47,118 bases of DNA from a virus (Duplodnaviria > Heunggongvirae > Uroviricota > Caudoviricetes). The position numbers and the translations under genes are program-made. Under the pieces are notes generated by a model, which ran no database searches, was not told where the DNA came from, and saw only the letters and a program-made list of their open reading frames with translations. This document shows, piece after piece, positions 2,703-20,477 of the stretch. The stretch lies in the IMG/VR virus record IMGVR_UViG_2634166512_000003; one strand, written 5' to 3'. Positions within the stretch are counted from its first letter, which is position 1, and every line of letters starts with the position of its first letter.

Positions 2703-3271
2703 TAGCGTACCCTCAGCGAACGTTCGCCGCGTTCCAGATGTGCGCCTGGTACCGGGTTTAATAACTCGGCTGGTGGTGTTTCTCCACGCGCCAGTATTTC
2801 GGCGGCAACCGCCTCCGCAGATTCAATCACTTCTTTAATGGCTCGCTTGTTTGGTGTAATAACCGTTTCTACATCAACAAGTGACACGCCTTCATACTCA
2901 TCCGGGATCTTATCTTTGCTATCGATAATTACCCGGATAGCCCCCTGTGCATCAGTAAATGTGTTTTTTGCGGTTTTTAGTTTATCCAGGCCAGCAGCTT
3001 GCAGGCAGGCGAGCATATGCTTCCGAATTGCTTTTTCCTTGCCTTCAAAGGACGTCTTACGGGTAGCCAGGCGAGACATTTCTTCAGCGCAGGTACTGGC
3101 ATTGCCCTGTAAATTGCGGCAGATGACCATCATGGCGTCCAGTTTGTCTCCCAGTTCTCCTTCCATACCTTCAAGTGTGTCGGCGATCATCTCTGGCGTC
3201 AGTTCGTCGGAGGTTTCCAGCAGGTCAATCAGGCTGGCGTATTCTTTTGCAATAGCGATAGCGGTGCTCAT
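2702..3271 (-). CDS. Gp157-family-like phage protein (recombination/early module)
   Basis: 189-aa acidic protein directly downstream of and overlapping the large annealing-domain protein; family assignment from memory and synteny only. Confidence 0.4.
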   Translation of the reverse strand: MSTAIAIAKEYASLIDLLETSDELTPEMIADTLEGMEGELGDKLDAMMVICRNLQGNASTCAEEMSRLATRKTSFEGKEKAIRKHMLACLQAAGLDKLKTAKNTFTDAQGAIRVIIDSKDKIPDEYEGVSLVDVETVITPNKRAIKEVIESAEAVAAEILARGETPPAELLNPVPGAHLERGERSLRVR

Positions 3272-5490
3272 GCTGTTTGCTCCTGTGCGGCGGCGAGAGC
3301 GGCGAGGCGTTCGGTTTTGATTTCATTCAAACGGCGCAGGCGCGAACCAAGATAAGTTGAATACTCCTTATCACCTTTGGATTCTGCGGCTTTGCGGTGA
3401 ACTTCTACTTCCCGCGCAATAAGGCCATAGACTTTATTAACTTCATTGGGGGTTACGGCTGCAGCCAGTGTTTTGGCAACACCTGAGAGTCGTTCATCCA
3501 GTTCTTCACGCAGTCGGGTAGCATCCTCTGCTTTCTCGCTTGCCTTCTTAATACCGTATTCTGTATTCAGCTCGGCGGTGTAGGCACTATCGTTATGCAT
3601 ATCCATATAAACATCTGCCGCAAATCCCAGATGAGATAGTGCTTTGACGGTGGCATCAGTAAGAGACTTTTTGGAGGCCTCTTTTTCCATTACCAGTGCC
3701 CCTTTGTTATTTTTTGATATGTAATCCGTGTGGCCATATGACGGAATAAATCCTTTCACTCCGTTCCAGACGTACCAGAGATCTATCCGGATGGTGTGTA
3801 CTGACAGGCAGAACAGGGAGCCGTCAGCATCCCTGACAGGTTTTTGTCCAATAATTTTCCCTGTCTGATCCTGTATAGGTTCAAGTAATGGCACACCGCG
3901 ATCCACTCGCTCCTCCTTGATTTCAACTCCCCAACCAATGCCTTCCATTCCCAGCACTTCAGTCGCACGCATCAAAATATATTGTGCGCGTATGGAGTGC
4001 AGTCCTGCACCGTAATCATTATGTGTGACATACGCAGGATCGGTCCGCTGAACGCGATTCCAGATAGCCAAATTTGCTTTGCTCTGGTCATCATTCATTG
4101 CTGACAGATAATGCTCCATGCGAATTGATGCAGTTTTTTCCTCGGTATGGATCCGCTCAACCAGAGCGTCAACGTTCTGCACCAGGTCTTTTACCTGCTC
4201 GCTAAGTTTTTCTTGTGGAGGAGTCTCTTCTTCCAGGATAACAGTTACAGATTCCCGCTGTGATACGGCGTTATTTTCTGGTACGCCATACACATGGCGG
4301 GGCGTGACAAACTGCTCACGCAACTGCTGCAAACTACGCTCTCCAGCATTTGCTGCTTCGCTTTTTTCGCCCTGATTTGAGGGGGGTTCTGACATCATCC
4401 CATCGATTGAGAATCGCCCGCCGCCGTGGTTGGTGACTTTTACATCACCCTTTGGTGCTGCGTCCTTTGGCTTCTCTTCAACAGCATTTGCATCACGCTG
4501 CCCGTTAGCTTGCAGCCAGTTGTCGATGTGACTGCGCAGGGATTGCGGGAAATGGTACGTGTCTTTTGCGGGGGCACTCTGAACGACACCGAATACGGAT
4601 GCCCGGTCATAGGAAAGGATCTGATCCGTTGTGCGCAAGGCCATTGACCAGCGTTTAAAATCCTCCCGATCCTGGCTGATTATTTCGTCTGCCGCTTTCA
4701 GGACGCTGGGGGTGATTTTTTCCGGGCCAACGGGTAACAGAGCGCAGGCAATTTCACGATCCAGTGTAGCGTGAGTCTGTTTGTAAGGACGTGCGGATGC
4801 TGTTTCTGGTTTTACCTCCGGCAGCATTTCATCGCGTTTACCGGGATTCTCTACCCATTTTTTTATAAATTTGGAGATAGTCCAACTGGTCGGGTTTTGT
4901 TCCTGGGTATCGCAACTTGCCAAAATTGCATGTACCAGATTATTCAATCCAGCAATATGCATGTACTCGATGGGCTTACACGCCACCATGGCATCAAGAA
5001 CGATGCGGTTAAACGCGTCAACCTCATCCTCACTGTCAGTATCACTGTTGTCGAGCATCTCCAGGTATTCACGCGTCTGCGCAAGCAATTCACTGTTGAC
5101 TTCGTTGGCGTCGTGGCTGAACAGCAGAACGGCGGCGAATCGTTCACGAGCCGGCAGTTTCATCAGGTCGTTAACCTGTGCGATATCTGCTGAACCGCTA
5201 TCTACAACGGGGGTGTTAACTACCCATTTTTCGCCATCAAAACTGTGTTCTGTGGCGAACGTCTCATCAAACTCACCAACGCCTGGGCGCGGTTGGCCCG
5301 GGGCATCTTCCCAGATTTTAGGTTTGAAATAGTTGTCGCCGTGGTCAGGGTAGGCTTCCCACAATTTGCCGATGATGATGTTCTCGGCAACTTTTTTGTT
5401 AGGGGCGTCGATGGCGATGGCCAGCGCCGGGATCGCGCCGTTTTTGAGCGCGCCTTTTTTCGCTTCTAACAAGCCGTTAAAAATGGTCAT
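3268..5490 (-). CDS. large phage recombination protein: C-terminal Rad52/Sak/ERF-like single-strand annealing domain with about 400-aa N-terminal extension of unknown function
   Basis: 740-aa ORF with GAGGAAAGACC RBS; C-terminal half contains KKSLTDATVKALSHLGFAADVY, resembling the K-x-x-TDA-x-K-x-A-...-G-x-G-...-Y signature of Rad52-like annealing proteins; N-terminal half not recognised. Confidence 0.5.
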   Translation of the reverse strand: MTIFNGLLEAKKGALKNGAIPALAIAIDAPNKKVAENIIIGKLWEAYPDHGDNYFKPKIWEDAPGQPRPGVGEFDETFATEHSFDGEKWVVNTPVVDSGSADIAQVNDLMKLPARERFAAVLLFSHDANEVNSELLAQTREYLEMLDNSDTDSEDEVDAFNRIVLDAMVACKPIEYMHIAGLNNLVHAILASCDTQEQNPTSWTISKFIKKWVENPGKRDEMLPEVKPETASARPYKQTHATLDREIACALLPVGPEKITPSVLKAADEIISQDREDFKRWSMALRTTDQILSYDRASVFGVVQSAPAKDTYHFPQSLRSHIDNWLQANGQRDANAVEEKPKDAAPKGDVKVTNHGGGRFSIDGMMSEPPSNQGEKSEAANAGERSLQQLREQFVTPRHVYGVPENNAVSQRESVTVILEEETPPQEKLSEQVKDLVQNVDALVERIHTEEKTASIRMEHYLSAMNDDQSKANLAIWNRVQRTDPAYVTHNDYGAGLHSIRAQYILMRATEVLGMEGIGWGVEIKEERVDRGVPLLEPIQDQTGKIIGQKPVRDADGSLFCLSVHTIRIDLWYVWNGVKGFIPSYGHTDYISKNNKGALVMEKEASKKSLTDATVKALSHLGFAADVYMDMHNDSAYTAELNTEYGIKKASEKAEDATRLREELDERLSGVAKTLAAAVTPNEVNKVYGLIAREVEVHRKAAESKGDKEYSTYLGSRLRRLNEIKTERLAALAAAQEQTA

Positions 5491-14677: not shown

Positions 14678-14769
14678 ATTGACTTAGAAAAAGCCCGGGG
14701 CTATAGTTTCCGCGCAGCCGCAAAATCGGTTGCCGGGATTTGCACCCCGGATATCTAAAAGGCGACAAC

Positions 14770-14790
14770 GACGCGCCAGCGTCTTTTTTA
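14770..14790 (+). terminator. rho-independent terminator-like hairpin (possibly bidirectional)
   Basis: GACGC-GCCA-GCGTC stem-loop followed by TTTTTT; A-rich tract upstream; embedded in longer inverted repeat CGACAA...TTGTCG. Confidence 0.5.
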
Positions 14791-14949
14791 TTGTCGTGCG
14801 CACAGCCACATCCGCGATTTATGGTGGGGCGTGTAGGGGAGTCGAAAGGCTCGCCGGGTCCTTTTAGCCGGTAGTGCAAACCCTGCATGTCTCACCACCC
14901 AAAGATTTGCACCTGAGGGGGGTGATTATCCGACTAAAAGGAAATCGCT

Positions 14950-15744
14950 ATGACAACTCAAGTATCCGCAGCAGCCATCTCCCCGATTATCCACAACCAA
15001 CTTCCCGTCCTCACCACCGAATTACTCGCGAATCTCTATGGCACAGAGCCGGATTACATTCGTAAAAACCATAACCGGAACTCAGAGCGATTCGTGGTCG
15101 GGAAGCATTACTTTTTGCTCGAAGGTGAGGAGTTGCGCGAATTTAAGCACAGCATGTCTTTAAGACCTCCTGTGAAAATCGCCAGAAATGTCCGCTCTCT
15201 CATCCTCTGGACAGAACGCGGCGCAGCTCGCCATGCCAAAATGCTGGAAACAGAACAGGCCTGGGAAGTTTTCGAAAAGCTGGAAGATTGTTATTTTAGC
15301 CAGCGTCCAGAGAGGCGGAGTACAACCACCGATGACCGCACTCCCTTACGTGATGCCGTTAATATGCTGGTCGGTAAGAAAGGCATGATGTATCCCGATG
15401 CCTACACCATGATTCACCAACGTTTCGCCGTCTCTCACATAGAACAACTGTCACAGACGCAAATGTTAGAGGCGATTGAATACATCCACTGCCTGCTACT
15501 CGATGAAAATCAGCCAACCATTCCAGATTTTTCTTTTATCACCACTATCAAAAATGGAAAAGTGACCAGGATGCGCCATGTTGCCAAAGGCGAACATCTG
15601 ATGACGTTTGACGCTTTCAAAGAGATCGCTGAGCGGGCAGGGTATCTGGTGATCCACAGCGACAACCTGCGAAGTATGACGCTGGATAAATTGATGGTAA
15701 TGGGGAAAAAGTCGGTTGTATCCGTTGCTGATTCAGCATTTTGA
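14950..15744 (+). CDS. antirepressor / Roi-like protein with N-terminal KilA-N/ORF6N-type domain
   Basis: N-terminal region (LPVLTTELLANLYGTEPDYIRKNHNRNSERFVVGKHYFL) resembles ORF6N/KilA-N antirepressor domains as recalled. Confidence 0.55.
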   Translation: MTTQVSAAAISPIIHNQLPVLTTELLANLYGTEPDYIRKNHNRNSERFVVGKHYFLLEGEELREFKHSMSLRPPVKIARNVRSLILWTERGAARHAKMLETEQAWEVFEKLEDCYFSQRPERRSTTTDDRTPLRDAVNMLVGKKGMMYPDAYTMIHQRFAVSHIEQLSQTQMLEAIEYIHCLLLDENQPTIPDFSFITTIKNGKVTRMRHVAKGEHLMTFDAFKEIAERAGYLVIHSDNLRSMTLDKLMVMGKKSVVSVADSAF

Positions 15745-16845: not shown

Positions 16846-17471
16846 GAATTCCCTTTAGAGTAAGGATTGGTTTTTAAGACGCGGTCTGTAATCAGTTCCG
16901 AGAGCTACAGTAAACAACGCTGAGCACTGAACGCATCACAGGCAAGGTAAAAGGTGATATCGGCAAAGGCTGTGAAACCTTTAATTCAACAGATGGGAAC
17001 GGTATGCACAGGATCCTGTAACGACGCTCCCAAAACCGGAAACCTGTAAGGCATGTTTTCGCTGCTGAACTTAATATACGAACCTGCACTATCATGAACA
17101 TATTTTATATCGTTATACCCCGAGTGATTGTGCCCGGCAATGGATAGTGTCCTGGAGGAACTATTTCTACTGTAAAAGGTAGACATTTAATTTCAGTGTG
17201 GAATTATTCCCTGCTGTTAATAACCATGGCTCTATATGGCACCGAGCGGACTAGTTAACTTGCCTGAAAGCCGCTATGAGTGAGGAGCGAATATTGGCAC
17301 GATAGGATACCTGAACCATTTTTTGGACATGCGCTAAAAGCGAATGATTAGTTTTATCGGAATATTTACAGTATACTTACAAGGCAAGCTTGGCGTACCG
17401 TCTTGGGCGAGATTGCTTAAATTATTTTGTGGATATATCATTCAAACAAAAGATAATAAAATGAGGTTGTT

Positions 17472-17669
17472 ATGTCATATATTCGCGTAGAGAAAGATGG
17501 CCTTCAGTATGAAGCAGAATACTTCCGTGAAGAGGATATGGTCACAGTCTTTGGGGTTAGAGGAGGGCATTCCAGCGTGGTTCTAAATGGAATGACAGAA
17601 GTCGCGGCTGCTCGTACTGCGTTACGAAATCTTATTAGAGAAAATCAGGTTGATCCTCTAACTGATTAA
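17472..17669 (+). CDS. hypothetical small protein (65 aa)
   Basis: ORF in AT-rich island upstream of the T5orf172-like gene. Confidence 0.35.
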   Translation: MSYIRVEKDGLQYEAEYFREEDMVTVFGVRGGHSSVVLNGMTEVAAARTALRNLIRENQVDPLTD

Positions 17670-17873
17670 AAATAAGCCATCTTAACTGAGAGCATATTTT
17701 GATATAATTTAGATTAAATCTATTTTGAAGGTTAGTTTGGGATGAGAAGATTACATCAAAACCGTTATTACTAGCAATAAGTTGTGTAAATCAAATAATA
17801 CATAATCAGGTGGTAATATATACTAAGCGTAGTAAAGTTTTTATATATTCCTGTAACTTTGTGAGAAACTTCC

Positions 17874-18539
17874 ATGAAAGCCGACAACTTAAGAATTATA
17901 GAGAATGGCAAATATGTTTTCGATATGTTCTTGGATACTGGTGAATTTTACTATACAAGTCATGCCTTTGACACGAGAGAAGATGCAAAAAGCTGGATGG
18001 AAGAATGGCAGATTTGGGCAAATAATGTATCGAGTGGGAAAGTAAGTAGTATTTATTATATTTTACAAGTGCCTGATACTTGGGCCGGTTCTTCAGATAA
18101 AAATAACCCTTACTCGGGACTTTATGTGAAAATAGGGCGTTCCAATAATGTGCTAAAAAGGTTGTCTAACCTGCAGACAGGTGCATTTGGTCAATTAATA
18201 TTACACGCTTTGGAACCAGGTGGTTCAGAAAAAGAAAACTATCTTCATGAAAAATTTAGCAACGAAAGACGTCAAGGTGAATGGTTTGTTTGTACTAAGG
18301 AACTTACCAAGCATATATTTACAACATGGTTTAAAAACAAAATGCTCCCACCAGAACATCAAATAAAAATAATGCAGCTCGCAGAAAGAACAGGTATTTA
18401 TTCGCATGTTCATACACTAATGGGGGGGAAGCCAGACTTAGTAAACCCATCTATTAGTGAACCTTGGGAATGCGAAAAATATGTTTTGGTTGATATGATT
18501 TATAGCTCTTTAGCAAAGCAAGTTAATCATAAAAAATAA
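17874..18539 (+). CDS. T5orf172/MUG113-type (GIY-YIG superfamily) domain protein with uncharacterised N-terminal domain
   Basis: Motif GLYVKIGRSNNVLKRLSNLQTG...LHEKFSNERRQGEWF matches the recalled T5orf172 consensus (YVKIG...R...L..TG...LH..F...R..GEWF); AT-rich codon usage. Confidence 0.7.
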   Translation: MKADNLRIIENGKYVFDMFLDTGEFYYTSHAFDTREDAKSWMEEWQIWANNVSSGKVSSIYYILQVPDTWAGSSDKNNPYSGLYVKIGRSNNVLKRLSNLQTGAFGQLILHALEPGGSEKENYLHEKFSNERRQGEWFVCTKELTKHIFTTWFKNKMLPPEHQIKIMQLAERTGIYSHVHTLMGGKPDLVNPSISEPWECEKYVLVDMIYSSLAKQVNHKK

Positions 18540-18664
18540 AGTGTTACATTTTAACTATACAATTATTGATTCACTAATGAAGAGGTGATTTAGACGTATG
18601 AAGTTTTAATAAGCTCCAAGAATATTTTGTCATACATGGGTTAAAGAGTTATATAATAATATCT

Positions 18665-18722
18665 GCTTCTGGAACACAGCAGACAAGCACCTGCAGATAA
18701 AGGTCTGCTGAGAGCGAGAAGC
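18665..18722 (+). other. nested inverted-repeat element (possible structured RNA) in intergenic gap
   Basis: GCTTCT...AGAAGC outer stem enclosing CAGCAGAC...GTCTGCTG inner 8-bp stem with 18-nt loop. Confidence 0.3.
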
Positions 18723-18859
18723 GGATCATACGTTGGAAGTTGTTTAGGCAAATACGTTATAAACGTATTTGATTAAATTTACTTGGATCATAGTCTTCAA
18801 TAACGCTTTATTATATTGTTTTTCATGCAGCAAACAGGTTCACAGGTAGGTAATAAGCT

Positions 18860-19264
18860 ATGAGTGGATGGAAAGAGCCTTTTACATTAGCAGAACAGAT
18901 ACAATTAGCATTAAATTTAGGTTATGAGGCTGTACCAGATGAAGAGGCATATACTGGGGCATACTTCATTAAAGGTGGTAAGAAGTGGATCTTTAACATC
19001 ATCGGTCTCAAAAAGACATTGAATATATCTTCAGATGATGAACTAAGAGGGCAGGATTATGATGTTGATATGTATTTCGAAATTCGCCAAAATTGGGCAC
19101 AATACCAAGATATGATCTTTGGAAGCGAAGATATCACTCCTTCACCTAAAAATGAACTTACTTCAATTTACCATGACCTGCAGGTAACGGATGAACCCAG
19201 GGAAATGGTGTATCTTTCTGATGGGATGTGGCTGGCTCCCAACGGACGAATTGTACAACGATAG
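18860..19264 (+). CDS. hypothetical protein (134 aa), possible partner of T5orf172-like protein
   Basis: Co-oriented ORF downstream in the same AT-rich island. Confidence 0.45.
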   Translation: MSGWKEPFTLAEQIQLALNLGYEAVPDEEAYTGAYFIKGGKKWIFNIIGLKKTLNISSDDELRGQDYDVDMYFEIRQNWAQYQDMIFGSEDITPSPKNELTSIYHDLQVTDEPREMVYLSDGMWLAPNGRIVQR

Positions 19265-19373
19265 CACTCGAACACACTCAGTAATCGTCTATAAGGCCAG
19301 CACTTGTTACTTGGTCATTTGGGGTTGCTGGTCTTCTCCATTAAATCGACTAAAGTCTGTTCCATAGAGAGAG

Positions 19374-19979
19374 TTACTTGCGTTTAAAAAGGTATTTTGT
19401 CACGACCAGCACGAGGCCGAATACCTCTGTCAAAGTACCGCCCATGTACAACTGTAGTGTTAAATCCTCAAATTCCAGCTTACCTGCGCCGTCGGCAATA
19501 AATACACCATTCATTATCAGAAGTTGGCAAGCAAGGATAATCAGGAACCATTTCCCGTATCGTTTTTTTAGAGCGATTTCTGCTTCAAAATCTTTGTTGT
19601 TGAGTTGTTTGCGCTCATGCTCGGTATCAAGTGAATTCACCTGTTTCACAGATGTGAACTCGGTCAAGATTTTACTCTCAGTACGGGTGACTTGTTGAGA
19701 GGGTGTAACAGTTGGAATTCTTTTGCTAGACGCAGCTACAGCCATTTTGCGAGCTTCGGCAGCTCTTTTTCTGGCTATTCCGCGAATACGGACAGCCGTT
19801 TTTTTGGGGGCGTGCGAAACCTTTGGCTGAGGTGAAGTTTCGTCAGGAGACTGAACCGGGGTTTCATCGTCCCCCGGCTCAACCTCTTCTGCTAACTGAC
19901 GGTGTAGGTTGAGGGAATCCTTCAGTCGGCGTGCAACTTCCTGTTTGAAACGGCTGTTAAAATCGTCATCCGATGGCAT
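19374..19979 (-). CDS. Lys/Arg-rich protein with two C-terminal transmembrane helices
   Basis: Hydrophobic segments WFLIILACQLLIMNGVFIA and LTEVFGLVLVVTKYLF near the C-terminus; start 10 nt after ImmA-like stop; 3' end coincides with repeat copy B. Confidence 0.55.
   Translation of the reverse strand: MPSDDDFNSRFKQEVARRLKDSLNLHRQLAEEVEPGDDETPVQSPDETSPQPKVSHAPKKTAVRIRGIARKRAAEARKMAVAASSKRIPTVTPSQQVTRTESKILTEFTSVKQVNSLDTEHERKQLNNKDFEAEIALKKRYGKWFLIILACQLLIMNGVFIADGAGKLEFEDLTLQLYMGGTLTEVFGLVLVVTKYLFKRK
19384..19454. repeat. copy B of about 70-bp direct repeat (coding 3' end of the 19374..19979 gene)
   Basis: Near-identical to 15783..15852. Confidence 0.8.
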
Positions 19980-19988
19980 TCTAAAGCG

Positions 19989-20477
19989 TTACCCCAACCT
20001 CAAGTTCTTTAAACGATAAGTCATCGCATCGTCAGATACGCCAAAATAATGCGCCATTATATAACTTGGTTGGCCGTCAGCGTGCAGTTTTCTGACCTCA
20101 TCAACCGGCATCAGAAGTTCTGCTGCGAACTTGTTCGCAAAAATTTCATCAGGATGCGTTCCGGCGCTTGCGGTTTCGCCACGTAAATCAACGTACTCAT
20201 ATTCATCACTATGCGATGCTTGCCGGGCGATGTAATGCCCCAACTCATGCCCACATGAAAAACGTTGACGAACTTTGTTGTCATCACTGTTTAGAAAGAT
20301 CGCTGGATCTTGATCTTTTTGTTTAATCAGTGCGCCAGAAACTTTCCCAGGAAGATCGGTAATAAAAACATCTAATCCCATGTCGTGAGCAATTTTCGCT
20401 GGATCAACAGGGAAACCACGCCCGCACCAGAACGTGTCCAGCACTCGCCGGGCGTGCTCTCTTGGGTTGGTAGCCAT
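19989..20477 (-). CDS. ImmA/IrrE-family metallopeptidase
   Basis: HELGHY zinc-binding HEXXH motif in a 162-aa protein; GGAG RBS upstream. Confidence 0.7.
   Translation of the reverse strand: MATNPREHARRVLDTFWCGRGFPVDPAKIAHDMGLDVFITDLPGKVSGALIKQKDQDPAIFLNSDDNKVRQRFSCGHELGHYIARQASHSDEYEYVDLRGETASAGTHPDEIFANKFAAELLMPVDEVRKLHADGQPSYIMAHYFGVSDDAMTYRLKNLRLG

Follow-up and report, generated by a model that had tools for sequence, protein, structure and literature searches.

What is the nested hairpin that occupies the 320-bp gap between a GIY-YIG/T5orf172 gene and a 134-aa open reading frame (ORF) in the viral record IMGVR_UViG_2634166512_000003, and does it belong to its two neighbors? The window, that is, the whole stretch of 47,118 nt analyzed here, is an E. 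coli lambdoid prophage integrated beside tRNA-Ser(cga) and mtfA. A first-pass annotation had placed the hairpin at 18661–18722 and suggested a regulatory RNA structure, an RNA antitoxin-like element or a protein-binding site within a candidate T5orf172 module. Our analysis leads elsewhere: the hairpin is one copy of a widespread repeat, not a private regulator of its two neighbors. We refer to this palindromic element of ~72 bp as E, the copy at issue spanning 18658–18729. E is the gene-less miniature of a unit encoding a small tyrosine recombinase, int200, and we lean towards its being a recombination site that marks boundaries between exchangeable gene blocks.

The hairpin as one copy of a dispersed repeat

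Direct reading of the sequence confirmed the gap (18540–18859), with the GIY-YIG/T5orf172 gene on one side and the 134-aa ORF on the other, as well as both stems of the hairpin. The inner 8-bp stem (CAGCAGAC at 18677–18684, GTCTGCTG at 18703–18710) closes an 18-nt loop (18685–18702), and the outer 6-bp stem (GCTTCT, 18665–18670; AGAAGC, 18717–18722) can be extended to 10 bp with one T·G pair (ATCTGCTTCT, 18661–18670; AGAAGCGGAT, 18717–18726). Folding of 18640–18760 gave −31.5 kcal/mol on the + strand (z −2.79; z −3.24 on the − strand), and none of 200 shuffles was as stable on either strand. The feature is far beyond chance because a covariance model built from homologous copies elsewhere (R1) matched 18658–18729 at 78 bits (E-value 6e-20 across the whole window), thereby also revealing an element of 72 nt, slightly larger than first annotated. 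It is indeed no simple intrinsic terminator, in view of its 18-nt loop and a 3’ flank (CATACGTTGG) without a U-tract; no T-run follows the stem, and a terminator scan of the window did not list it. The parts of this copy are as follows.

18658–18729, + strand: full E copy (left arm, central stem-loop, right arm); model R1 78 bits, E-value 6e-20; strict pattern ACANAGCRGACAARC-N26-CGANNAGCGGA
18658–18675, + strand: left arm AATATCTGCTTCTGGAAC; consensus AAyGTCCGCTyyTGGCAC, two substitutions in the 14-mer core; from alignments and arm scan
18677–18710, + strand: central stem-loop, CAGCAGAC, 18-nt loop, GTCTGCTG; from sequence reading and folding
18711–18729, + strand: right arm AGAGCGAGAAGCGGATCAT; consensus wGAGCGArrAGCGGAmrTT, 14-mer core exact; from alignments and arm scan

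The dispersal of E became apparent in a sensitive blastn search of 18600–18800 against 5426 complete E. coli genomes. While the gap region as a whole is near-identical in 17 of these, about 50 genomes match only 18658–18725 (68 nt) at ~79% identity, in unrelated islands where the neighbors are likewise unrelated (DJ-1/PfpI, DinB, MBL-fold hydrolase, yfjT). Altogether 68 genomes have an E match, at one place each. The gap had no blastn match in the phage collection; the E stretch matches 512–517 plasmids of Klebsiella, Pantoea, Enterobacter, Rahnella, Erwinia and others, and no annotated feature was overlapped among the matches listed. With an exact pattern, 20 viral and 32 genome loci were retrieved, nearly all of them from Enterobacterales and spread over many genera, the 32 strict matches stemming from 185,579 species-representative genomes with one to three per genome. 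E is restricted to accessory DNA, as opposed to core intergenic space, and recurs in dozens of unrelated contexts; the genes beside it are unrelated as well, and it may point either way with respect to these genes. Literature searches by sequence, accession and keyword found no description of E, with most subscription journals outside their coverage, so that a prior description is possible.

The strict copies are uniformly ~72 nt long (AAyG TCCGCT yy TGGCAC a s AGCrGAC, 18-nt loop, GTCyGCT r w GAGCGA rr AGCGGA mrTT), and their consensus forms a long hairpin in which 22 pairs are accompanied by two conserved mismatches, G-G and A-A. Model R1 found more diverged copies in the same loci, for a total of 93 distinct sequences. 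Across these, two inverted outer arms of ~18–20 bp are conserved (AAyGTCCGCTyyTGGCAC and GAGCGArrAGCGGAmrTT), and TCCGCT/AGCGGA forms a perfect duplex that is paired in about 80–90% of copies. The center varies in sequence and length and usually still forms a stem-loop with compensatory substitutions, as illustrated by the stems AGCAGAC/GTCTGCT, AGCGGAC/GTCCGCT, GCTGCC/GGCGGC, TTGCGG/CCGCAG and AGTGCTG/CAGCTAA; pair 36–87 of alignment A5 (24–49 in A4), for example, is AT 40 times, GC 20 times and GT 19 times. In the strict copies, the columns of the hairpin are paired in 84% of cells, versus 30–44% when the partner columns are slid.

Arms also occur singly. Of 217 arm motifs (≤1 mismatch) in the loci analyzed, 94 failed the strict test for a partner arm; part of these are full copies missed by the test and many are true solo arms. 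A frequent form of the latter is GTCCGCT-yyTGGCACnnn-GCGGAC, a small palindrome of 24–28 bp. A second repeat variant exists as well (TGGCACAGAGC...GCTCTGTGCC): at L010 (~7530 of the oriented excerpt), L070:3573, L074:14259 and L086:14160, the left arm TCCGCTyyTGGCACAGAGC is followed by GTCAGATTAGATTTrGCTCTGTGCC, giving a palindrome centered on GGCACAGAGC/GCTCTGTGCC without the usual right arm. The search for a clean empty site of E in related genomes found none; that for the Klebsiella plasmid copy was swamped by IS903 matches, and loci L003–L005 hold a decayed half E, which is not an empty site.

The arms are themselves hit by another mobile element. At three independent loci (L010, L025 and L034), a 1.5-kb insertion sequence (IS) of the IS110 family is located precisely at an arm's yy dinucleotide, and arms of either type are affected (GTCCGCT-yy-TGGCAC or -TCGCTC). 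The element encodes a 414-aa transposase (L034:2489–4003 of the oriented 5.3-kb excerpt), and a copy at L040 is rearranged. The E arm looks like a natural sequence-specific target for an IS of the bridge-RNA type. We count these insertions among the arguments for E acting at the DNA level. Members of the IS110 family are known to insert into repetitive extragenic palindromic (REP) sequences and, in the case of the IS1111-attC group, into attC sites, which brings both classes of site into play as identities of E.

REP sequences, their interspersed mosaic elements (BIMEs) and the REP doublets termed REPINs share more with E than this common visitor: they are extragenic palindromes, form long hairpins as doublets and often lie just 3’ of genes. 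E might accordingly be a REP or REPIN handled by a REP-associated tyrosine transposase (RAYT, a Y1 HUH enzyme) or, alternatively, a local operator for a nearby regulator such as the ImmA/IrrE-linked pair, whose protease gene is 1.3 kb away. However, REPs are high-copy, species-specific and mostly found in the core genome, carry a GTAG head and go with a single-copy HUH enzyme, whereas E has no GTAG head, is low-copy (the 32 strict matches above), shares ~80% identity across genera, is confined to mobile and accessory DNA and is linked to a tyrosine recombinase. Furthermore, E cannot be the operator of a locus-specific regulator because its neighbors differ completely between copies. We give next to no credence to either version of this proposal.

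A recombinase unit with the ends of E

Clustering of the genes within ±4 kb of E yielded no universal neighbor. A tyrosine recombinase of 200 aa, int200 (WP_013578387.1 on the Rahnella plasmid pRAHAQ02, NC_015063.1), was found by phmmer comparison of all ORFs of the whole loci to recur in five that carry E. The conserved nucleotide block around its gene measures only ~710 bp and ends in the two arms of E: the unit starts with ATGTCCGCTCTTCGCTC... and terminates in ...CAGGGCTG-N6-CAGCCCTG TGCCAGGCGCGGACATT, the order being arm, int200, stem-loop, arm. Since the unit ends in both E arms, E is the int200 unit minus its gene, i.e., a gene-less miniature. The right arm was present in nine of nine units examined and the left arm in six of nine, and a tenth unit, that of E. 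coli Nissle 1917 (recombinase WP_001305361.1), has both.

The association also holds from the opposite direction. Starting from int200 homologues, E copies or solo arms were found within 10 kb in all four Enterobacterales contexts (Pantoea, E. coli, E. coli Nissle 1917 and one metagenome contig), co-oriented with the unit, and at nine loci, Nissle 1917 among them, the unit lies inside E arrays. Downstream of the Nissle unit (L086:12785–20446), E copies and solo arms bracket an ETEC_3214-family gene and a hypothetical gene, and an E-bounded block holds a complete iron-uptake operon with TonB-dependent receptor and ABC transporter.

The int200 protein consists of the catalytic domain only (PF00589, precomputed for all homologues), and the residues R51, H148-x-x-R151, H174 and Y183 (R...HxxR...H...Y) are invariant. 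It is 76–93% identical across gammaproteobacterial orders, is under strong purifying selection and is encoded in 875 of the 5426 complete E. coli genomes (about 16%). Its best profile matches are Xer-like (E-value 1e-14) and well under the family cut-offs, and an NCBIfam model for tyrosine-type DNA invertases matches weakly at an E-value of 2e-4; a sequence search of the PDB with int200 gave no match. In its recombinase of about 200 aa, in this weak similarity to invertases and in the position of the gene between inverted repeats, the unit recalls FimB/FimE and Hin, the gene of the latter lying between hixL and hixR. Yet no inversion polymorphism was seen for the int200 unit, the best profile matches are the Xer-like ones, and the unit and its miniatures are dispersed at cassette boundaries instead of forming one fixed promoter switch. 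Another candidate partner of E, a 349-aa tyrosine recombinase between the pRAHAQ02 arrays, was dismissed, as it is not recurrent and has only weak XerC/XerD-like matches far below the cut-offs.

Arrays and mosaic junctions

At least two E copies are present in 31 loci, where adjacent pairs are co-oriented in 52 of 55 cases (p 1.5e-12) and mostly spaced by about 0.5–5 kb. These arrays, to which solo arms and now and then a full-length int200 unit also belong, separate accessory-gene blocks of prophages, plasmids and genomic islands. Plasmid pRAHAQ02 provides a clear example, with six copies on one strand separating MFS+LysR, AraC+aldo-keto reductase, acyltransferase and GNAT...NUDIX blocks, and two further copies on the opposite strand about 14 kb further. 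Such blocks comprise between one and six genes and bring regulators of their own, the genes point both ways, and on one particular side of E a gene tends to end 25–180 nt away (30 of 45 copies; five of six on pRAHAQ02). As a separate observation, the island of E. coli AR_0119 (L068:34184–38924), which contains three E copies, ends in a pair of neighboring tyrosine recombinase genes (399 and 513 aa) and, after them, a gene of 668 aa, with a relaxase gene a few kb beyond; the arrangement resembles elements of the gamma-mobile-trio type and may represent one.

With co-oriented arrays of imperfect palindromes between cassettes, E strongly calls to mind integron attC sites (about 60–140 nt) and the clusters of attC sites lacking integron integrases (CALINs). 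Conserved outer boxes around a variable paired center, the AAy at the left and rTT at the right end, the targeting by IS110-family elements as seen for the IS1111-attC group, and a tyrosine recombinase as presumed actor would all be in line with E arrays being CALINs recombined by canonical IntI. In detail, however, the resemblance breaks down. Of the 93 copies, none has the R'' box RYYYAAC at its left end and two have the R' box GTTRRRY at the right (the shorter AAC at columns 1–3 occurs in 20, GTT at columns 70–72 in 23); no extrahelical bases are evident, and the would-be unpaired central spacer is the perfect, invariant duplex TCCGCT/AGCGGA. A phmmer search of the short loci with IntI1 returned no IntI-like protein, its only match, a marginal one, being to int200, and the recombinases of pRAHAQ02 do not reach the integron-integrase models. 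While IntI is encoded beside attI, the catalytic-domain-only int200 is encoded between the arms of one repeat; E blocks are multi-gene, with own regulators and genes in both orientations, and E has solo half sites of 24–28 bp. That E is an attC site is, in our view, very improbable.

Mosaic junctions were identified in 11 pairs of loci which have one flank plus E in common, at 96–99.7% identity, and an unrelated other flank. Between L007 and L008, the replaced segment has a full E at one end and a solo left arm at the other, and the yy dinucleotide is not the same. E. coli G47-1 and an unrelated bacterium have in common a block of 1842 bp, made up of E, two genes and the left arm that comes next, at 98% identity; the left-arm motif delimits this block at either side, and its flanks are unrelated. 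The same applies to a 958-bp block at two loci of one Phytobacter genome, which is likewise arm-bounded with unrelated flanks. Breakpoints at E edges might be taken as evidence of site-specific crossover, but we do not use this argument, as any crossover inside identical repeats looks alike. An 8-bp overlap region (TCCGCTyy), suggested by two clusters of junctions, was rejected too, because the apparent junctions merely fall at variable positions.

The window itself contains such a junction. A second, degenerate E copy was detected upstream of the first, and the region can be divided as follows.

17222–17295, + strand: second, degenerate E copy in the same orientation as 18658–18729; R1 23.1 bits, E-value 3e-4 in the window with filters off
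17296–18657, + strand: block between the two co-oriented E copies, with small ORFs at 17344–17490 and 17472–17669 and the GIY-YIG/T5orf172 gene at 17874–18539
18730–19351, + strand: block to the right of E with the 134-aa ORF at 18860–19264; right junction 19346–19352 without an E copy

The 221-aa product of the GIY-YIG/T5orf172 gene was assigned by its matches to Pfam T5orf172 (E-value 4.4e-7) and MUG113 (E-value 6.5e-10); the 134-aa protein is without a family match. The GIY-YIG block thus sits between two co-oriented E copies. Prophages of the ST131 type (e.g., EC958) match the window up to 17246, inside the degenerate copy, and then again from 19352. In hundreds of E. coli genomes (ST131 and others), the whole intervening segment 17247–19351 (GIY-YIG gene, hairpin and 134-aa gene) has given way to another gene, of 232 aa (L070:1898–3822; L069), between the same LprI-family and ImmA/IrrE flanks. 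L070 has its own E copy at the matching place (1876–1948), of which only the left arm is common with that of the window. The copy at 17222–17295 therefore forms the left border of the segment in which the window and the ST131 prophages differ. The best reading of the region is that the two copies bracket the GIY-YIG block, with 18658–18729 forming the boundary to the block of the 134-aa gene.

A complementary picture emerged from loci L003–L005, which retain a homologue of the 134-aa gene and ~110 nt of its proximal upstream region, but only the decayed right half of E. In L003 and L004 an E copy lies 3’ of this homologue (3552–3618); L004 contains another some 1.2 kb beyond it (4804–4875). 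The proposed role of the hairpin as a regulatory part of a T5orf172 module finds no support in these data, as E recurs in unrelated contexts, the downstream gene is kept in L003–L005 without an intact E, and the ST131 prophages replace the whole segment. The hairpin is thus no evidence for the GIY-YIG gene and the 134-aa gene being one regulated module; more likely, it is the mark of a seam where two blocks, acquired independently, meet. Two local features of these sequences may be mentioned in passing. The homologues in L003–L005 start within tandem GGAT repeats (ATGGATGGATGGATGG..., ~2990–3020) whose length differs between the loci, a region that may be prone to slippage. In the window, an AT-rich 10-bp hairpin with a T-rich tail (18749–18771) lies between E and the 134-aa gene and is not conserved with the E family.

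A function at the RNA level, as a structure in an untranslated region (stabilizer, processing site or non-canonical terminator) or as a small RNA or antitoxin regulating the flanking genes, would draw support from the stability of the hairpin on both strands, from the tendency of gene 3’ ends to face one side of E at 25–180 nt, and from a sigma-70-like TTGTCA-N19-TATAAT just upstream (18627–18657). This promoter-like sequence was found by reading the sequence, as the promoter scan omitted it owing to its spacer of 19; it is not conserved with the E family. On the other hand, the hairpin was without a match at Rfam gathering thresholds, the best hit of a permissive Rfam search being a eukaryotic miRNA model at 19 bits versus a threshold of 70, and a U-tract is lacking. 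The orientation of E is that of its array and not that of the neighboring genes, which run in both directions, and there is no consistent strand relative to genes. Substitutions of the G·U and A·C types (137 versus 96) revealed no clear strand bias for folding, homologues of the downstream gene manage without an intact E, and the same arms flank a recombinase gene. Thus, neither a regulatory RNA nor an RNA antitoxin finds backing in these comparisons, and we consider an RNA function improbable.

The arms as candidate recombination sites

With moderate confidence, we read E as a DNA-level recombination site, a miniature of the int200 unit that marks a cassette boundary, with int200 acting site-specifically on its arms. 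According to this model, the arms would serve as recognition and crossover sites, and int200, provided in cis or in trans, would recombine the arms of different copies, such that blocks between co-oriented copies could leave, enter and change places in the manner of cassettes. We infer from the sequence comparisons that the arms are bound and cut by int200 and that the exchange is site-specific and not homologous. Among the three functions first envisaged for the hairpin, a protein-binding site comes closest, inasmuch as the arms are probably recognized by a recombinase, although not as part of a T5orf172 module.

The main competitor of this model is that E is a decayed selfish element without present function, akin to MITEs (miniature transposable elements with inverted repeats), which merely offers 20–70 bp of shared sequence for shuffling by RecA or phage Red/RecET. 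E is indeed short and gene-less, its terminal inverted repeats are the ends of a longer, autonomous-looking unit that encodes an enzyme, and its multiple copies are dispersed between genes, many of them degenerate or reduced to solo arms. Breakpoints at repeat edges arise from any crossover in identical sequence, and co-oriented arrays would also result from Campbell-type integration of circles by homologous recombination. However, MITE-like insertion is at odds with the lack of target-site duplications (no enriched direct repeat for k = 2–9 at any offset in 90 copies), with a parent that is a tyrosine recombinase unit instead of a DDE transposase element, and with copies that are co-oriented in arrays at mosaic junctions and not randomly scattered. 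Against passive use by the homologous recombination machinery stand the conservation of arms and central pairing across genera, and an int200 under strong purifying selection inside the arrays. Moreover, several junctions fall on only ~25 nt of shared arm, the rest of E being absent; we argue that these speak against RecA-type exchange because ~25 nt is a poor RecA substrate. We therefore judge a purely passive E to be unlikely, albeit worth serious attention. E resembles attC in deployment and a MITE in origin, and fails defining features of both.

Several findings nonetheless weigh against an active role of int200 at the arms. Breakpoints at the edges of shared repeats are expected from any crossover in identical sequence and do not separate site-specific from homologous exchange, and the right junction of the variable segment in the window (19346–19352) is without an E copy. 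The arms are without the dyad with a 6–8-bp spacer that is usual for the core site of a tyrosine recombinase, and the arm positions yy and rr vary independently, without covariation. As to the conservation of pairing among homologues, which the first-pass annotation had proposed to check, it stands for the center, where pairs are kept with compensatory changes in the 93 copies, but formal covariation on 47 strict-pattern copies was no better than in shuffles because the strict pattern had fixed most columns; RNAalifold on the strict copies gave a trivial consensus only. Finally, int200 is present in only about 10% of E-bearing 8-kb loci, and the int200 loci of Providencia and of marine integrative and conjugative elements (ICEs) have no detectable R1-type E copies within 10 kb, their units showing a conserved right arm and a degenerate left arm.

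A more far-reaching proposal, to which we attach considerable doubt, is that E and int200 together make up a cassette platform of an integron-like kind, not described before, in Enterobacterales and other Gammaproteobacteria. Here, the FimB-sized int200, carried between the arms of one repeat, would recombine 14–20-bp motifs (TCCGCTyyTGGCAC) residing in full repeats or in solo half sites, and multi-gene blocks for defense, detoxification, transport and iron uptake would be excised, captured and shuffled among prophages, plasmids and islands; E. coli Nissle 1917 and about 16% of complete E. coli genomes would be among the carriers of this system. A precedent with respect to organization are the pdif (Xer) modules of Acinetobacter plasmids, where accessory modules bounded by short tyrosine-recombinase sites are likewise shuffled among replicons. 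The pdif sites are 28-bp XerC/XerD sites served by the host Xer proteins, whereas E arrays carry a dedicated small recombinase, and the E arms are unlike dif, as judged by eye.

Should the arms be live recombination sites, they would represent a second general route, besides integrons, by which mobile elements of Enterobacterales assemble and exchange accessory genes, the blocks concerned including candidate anti-phage genes, enzymes of detoxification along with their regulators, and an operon for iron uptake. This would also explain the sharp mosaic junctions in accessory regions of lambdoid prophages, in plasmid cargo and in CP4-57-like islands, and the arm motif together with the covariance model would provide a simple annotation marker for cassette boundaries.

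Two further features of the window lie apart from E. On the − strand (19374–20477), a gene for an ImmA/IrrE metallopeptidase (best PADLOC match CapP, E-value 2e-25) is located upstream of one for a 201-aa protein without family match. The pair converges on the 134-aa gene, is conserved in the ST131 prophage variant and may be a protease-controlled regulatory or defense pair. At 14714–14902, an isrK Hfq-binding RNA (76 bits) and a C4 antisense RNA (74 bits) are arranged in tandem directly upstream of an ORF6N-domain gene (14950–15744), which looks like a c4-ant immunity arrangement of the P1/P7 type within a lambdoid prophage.

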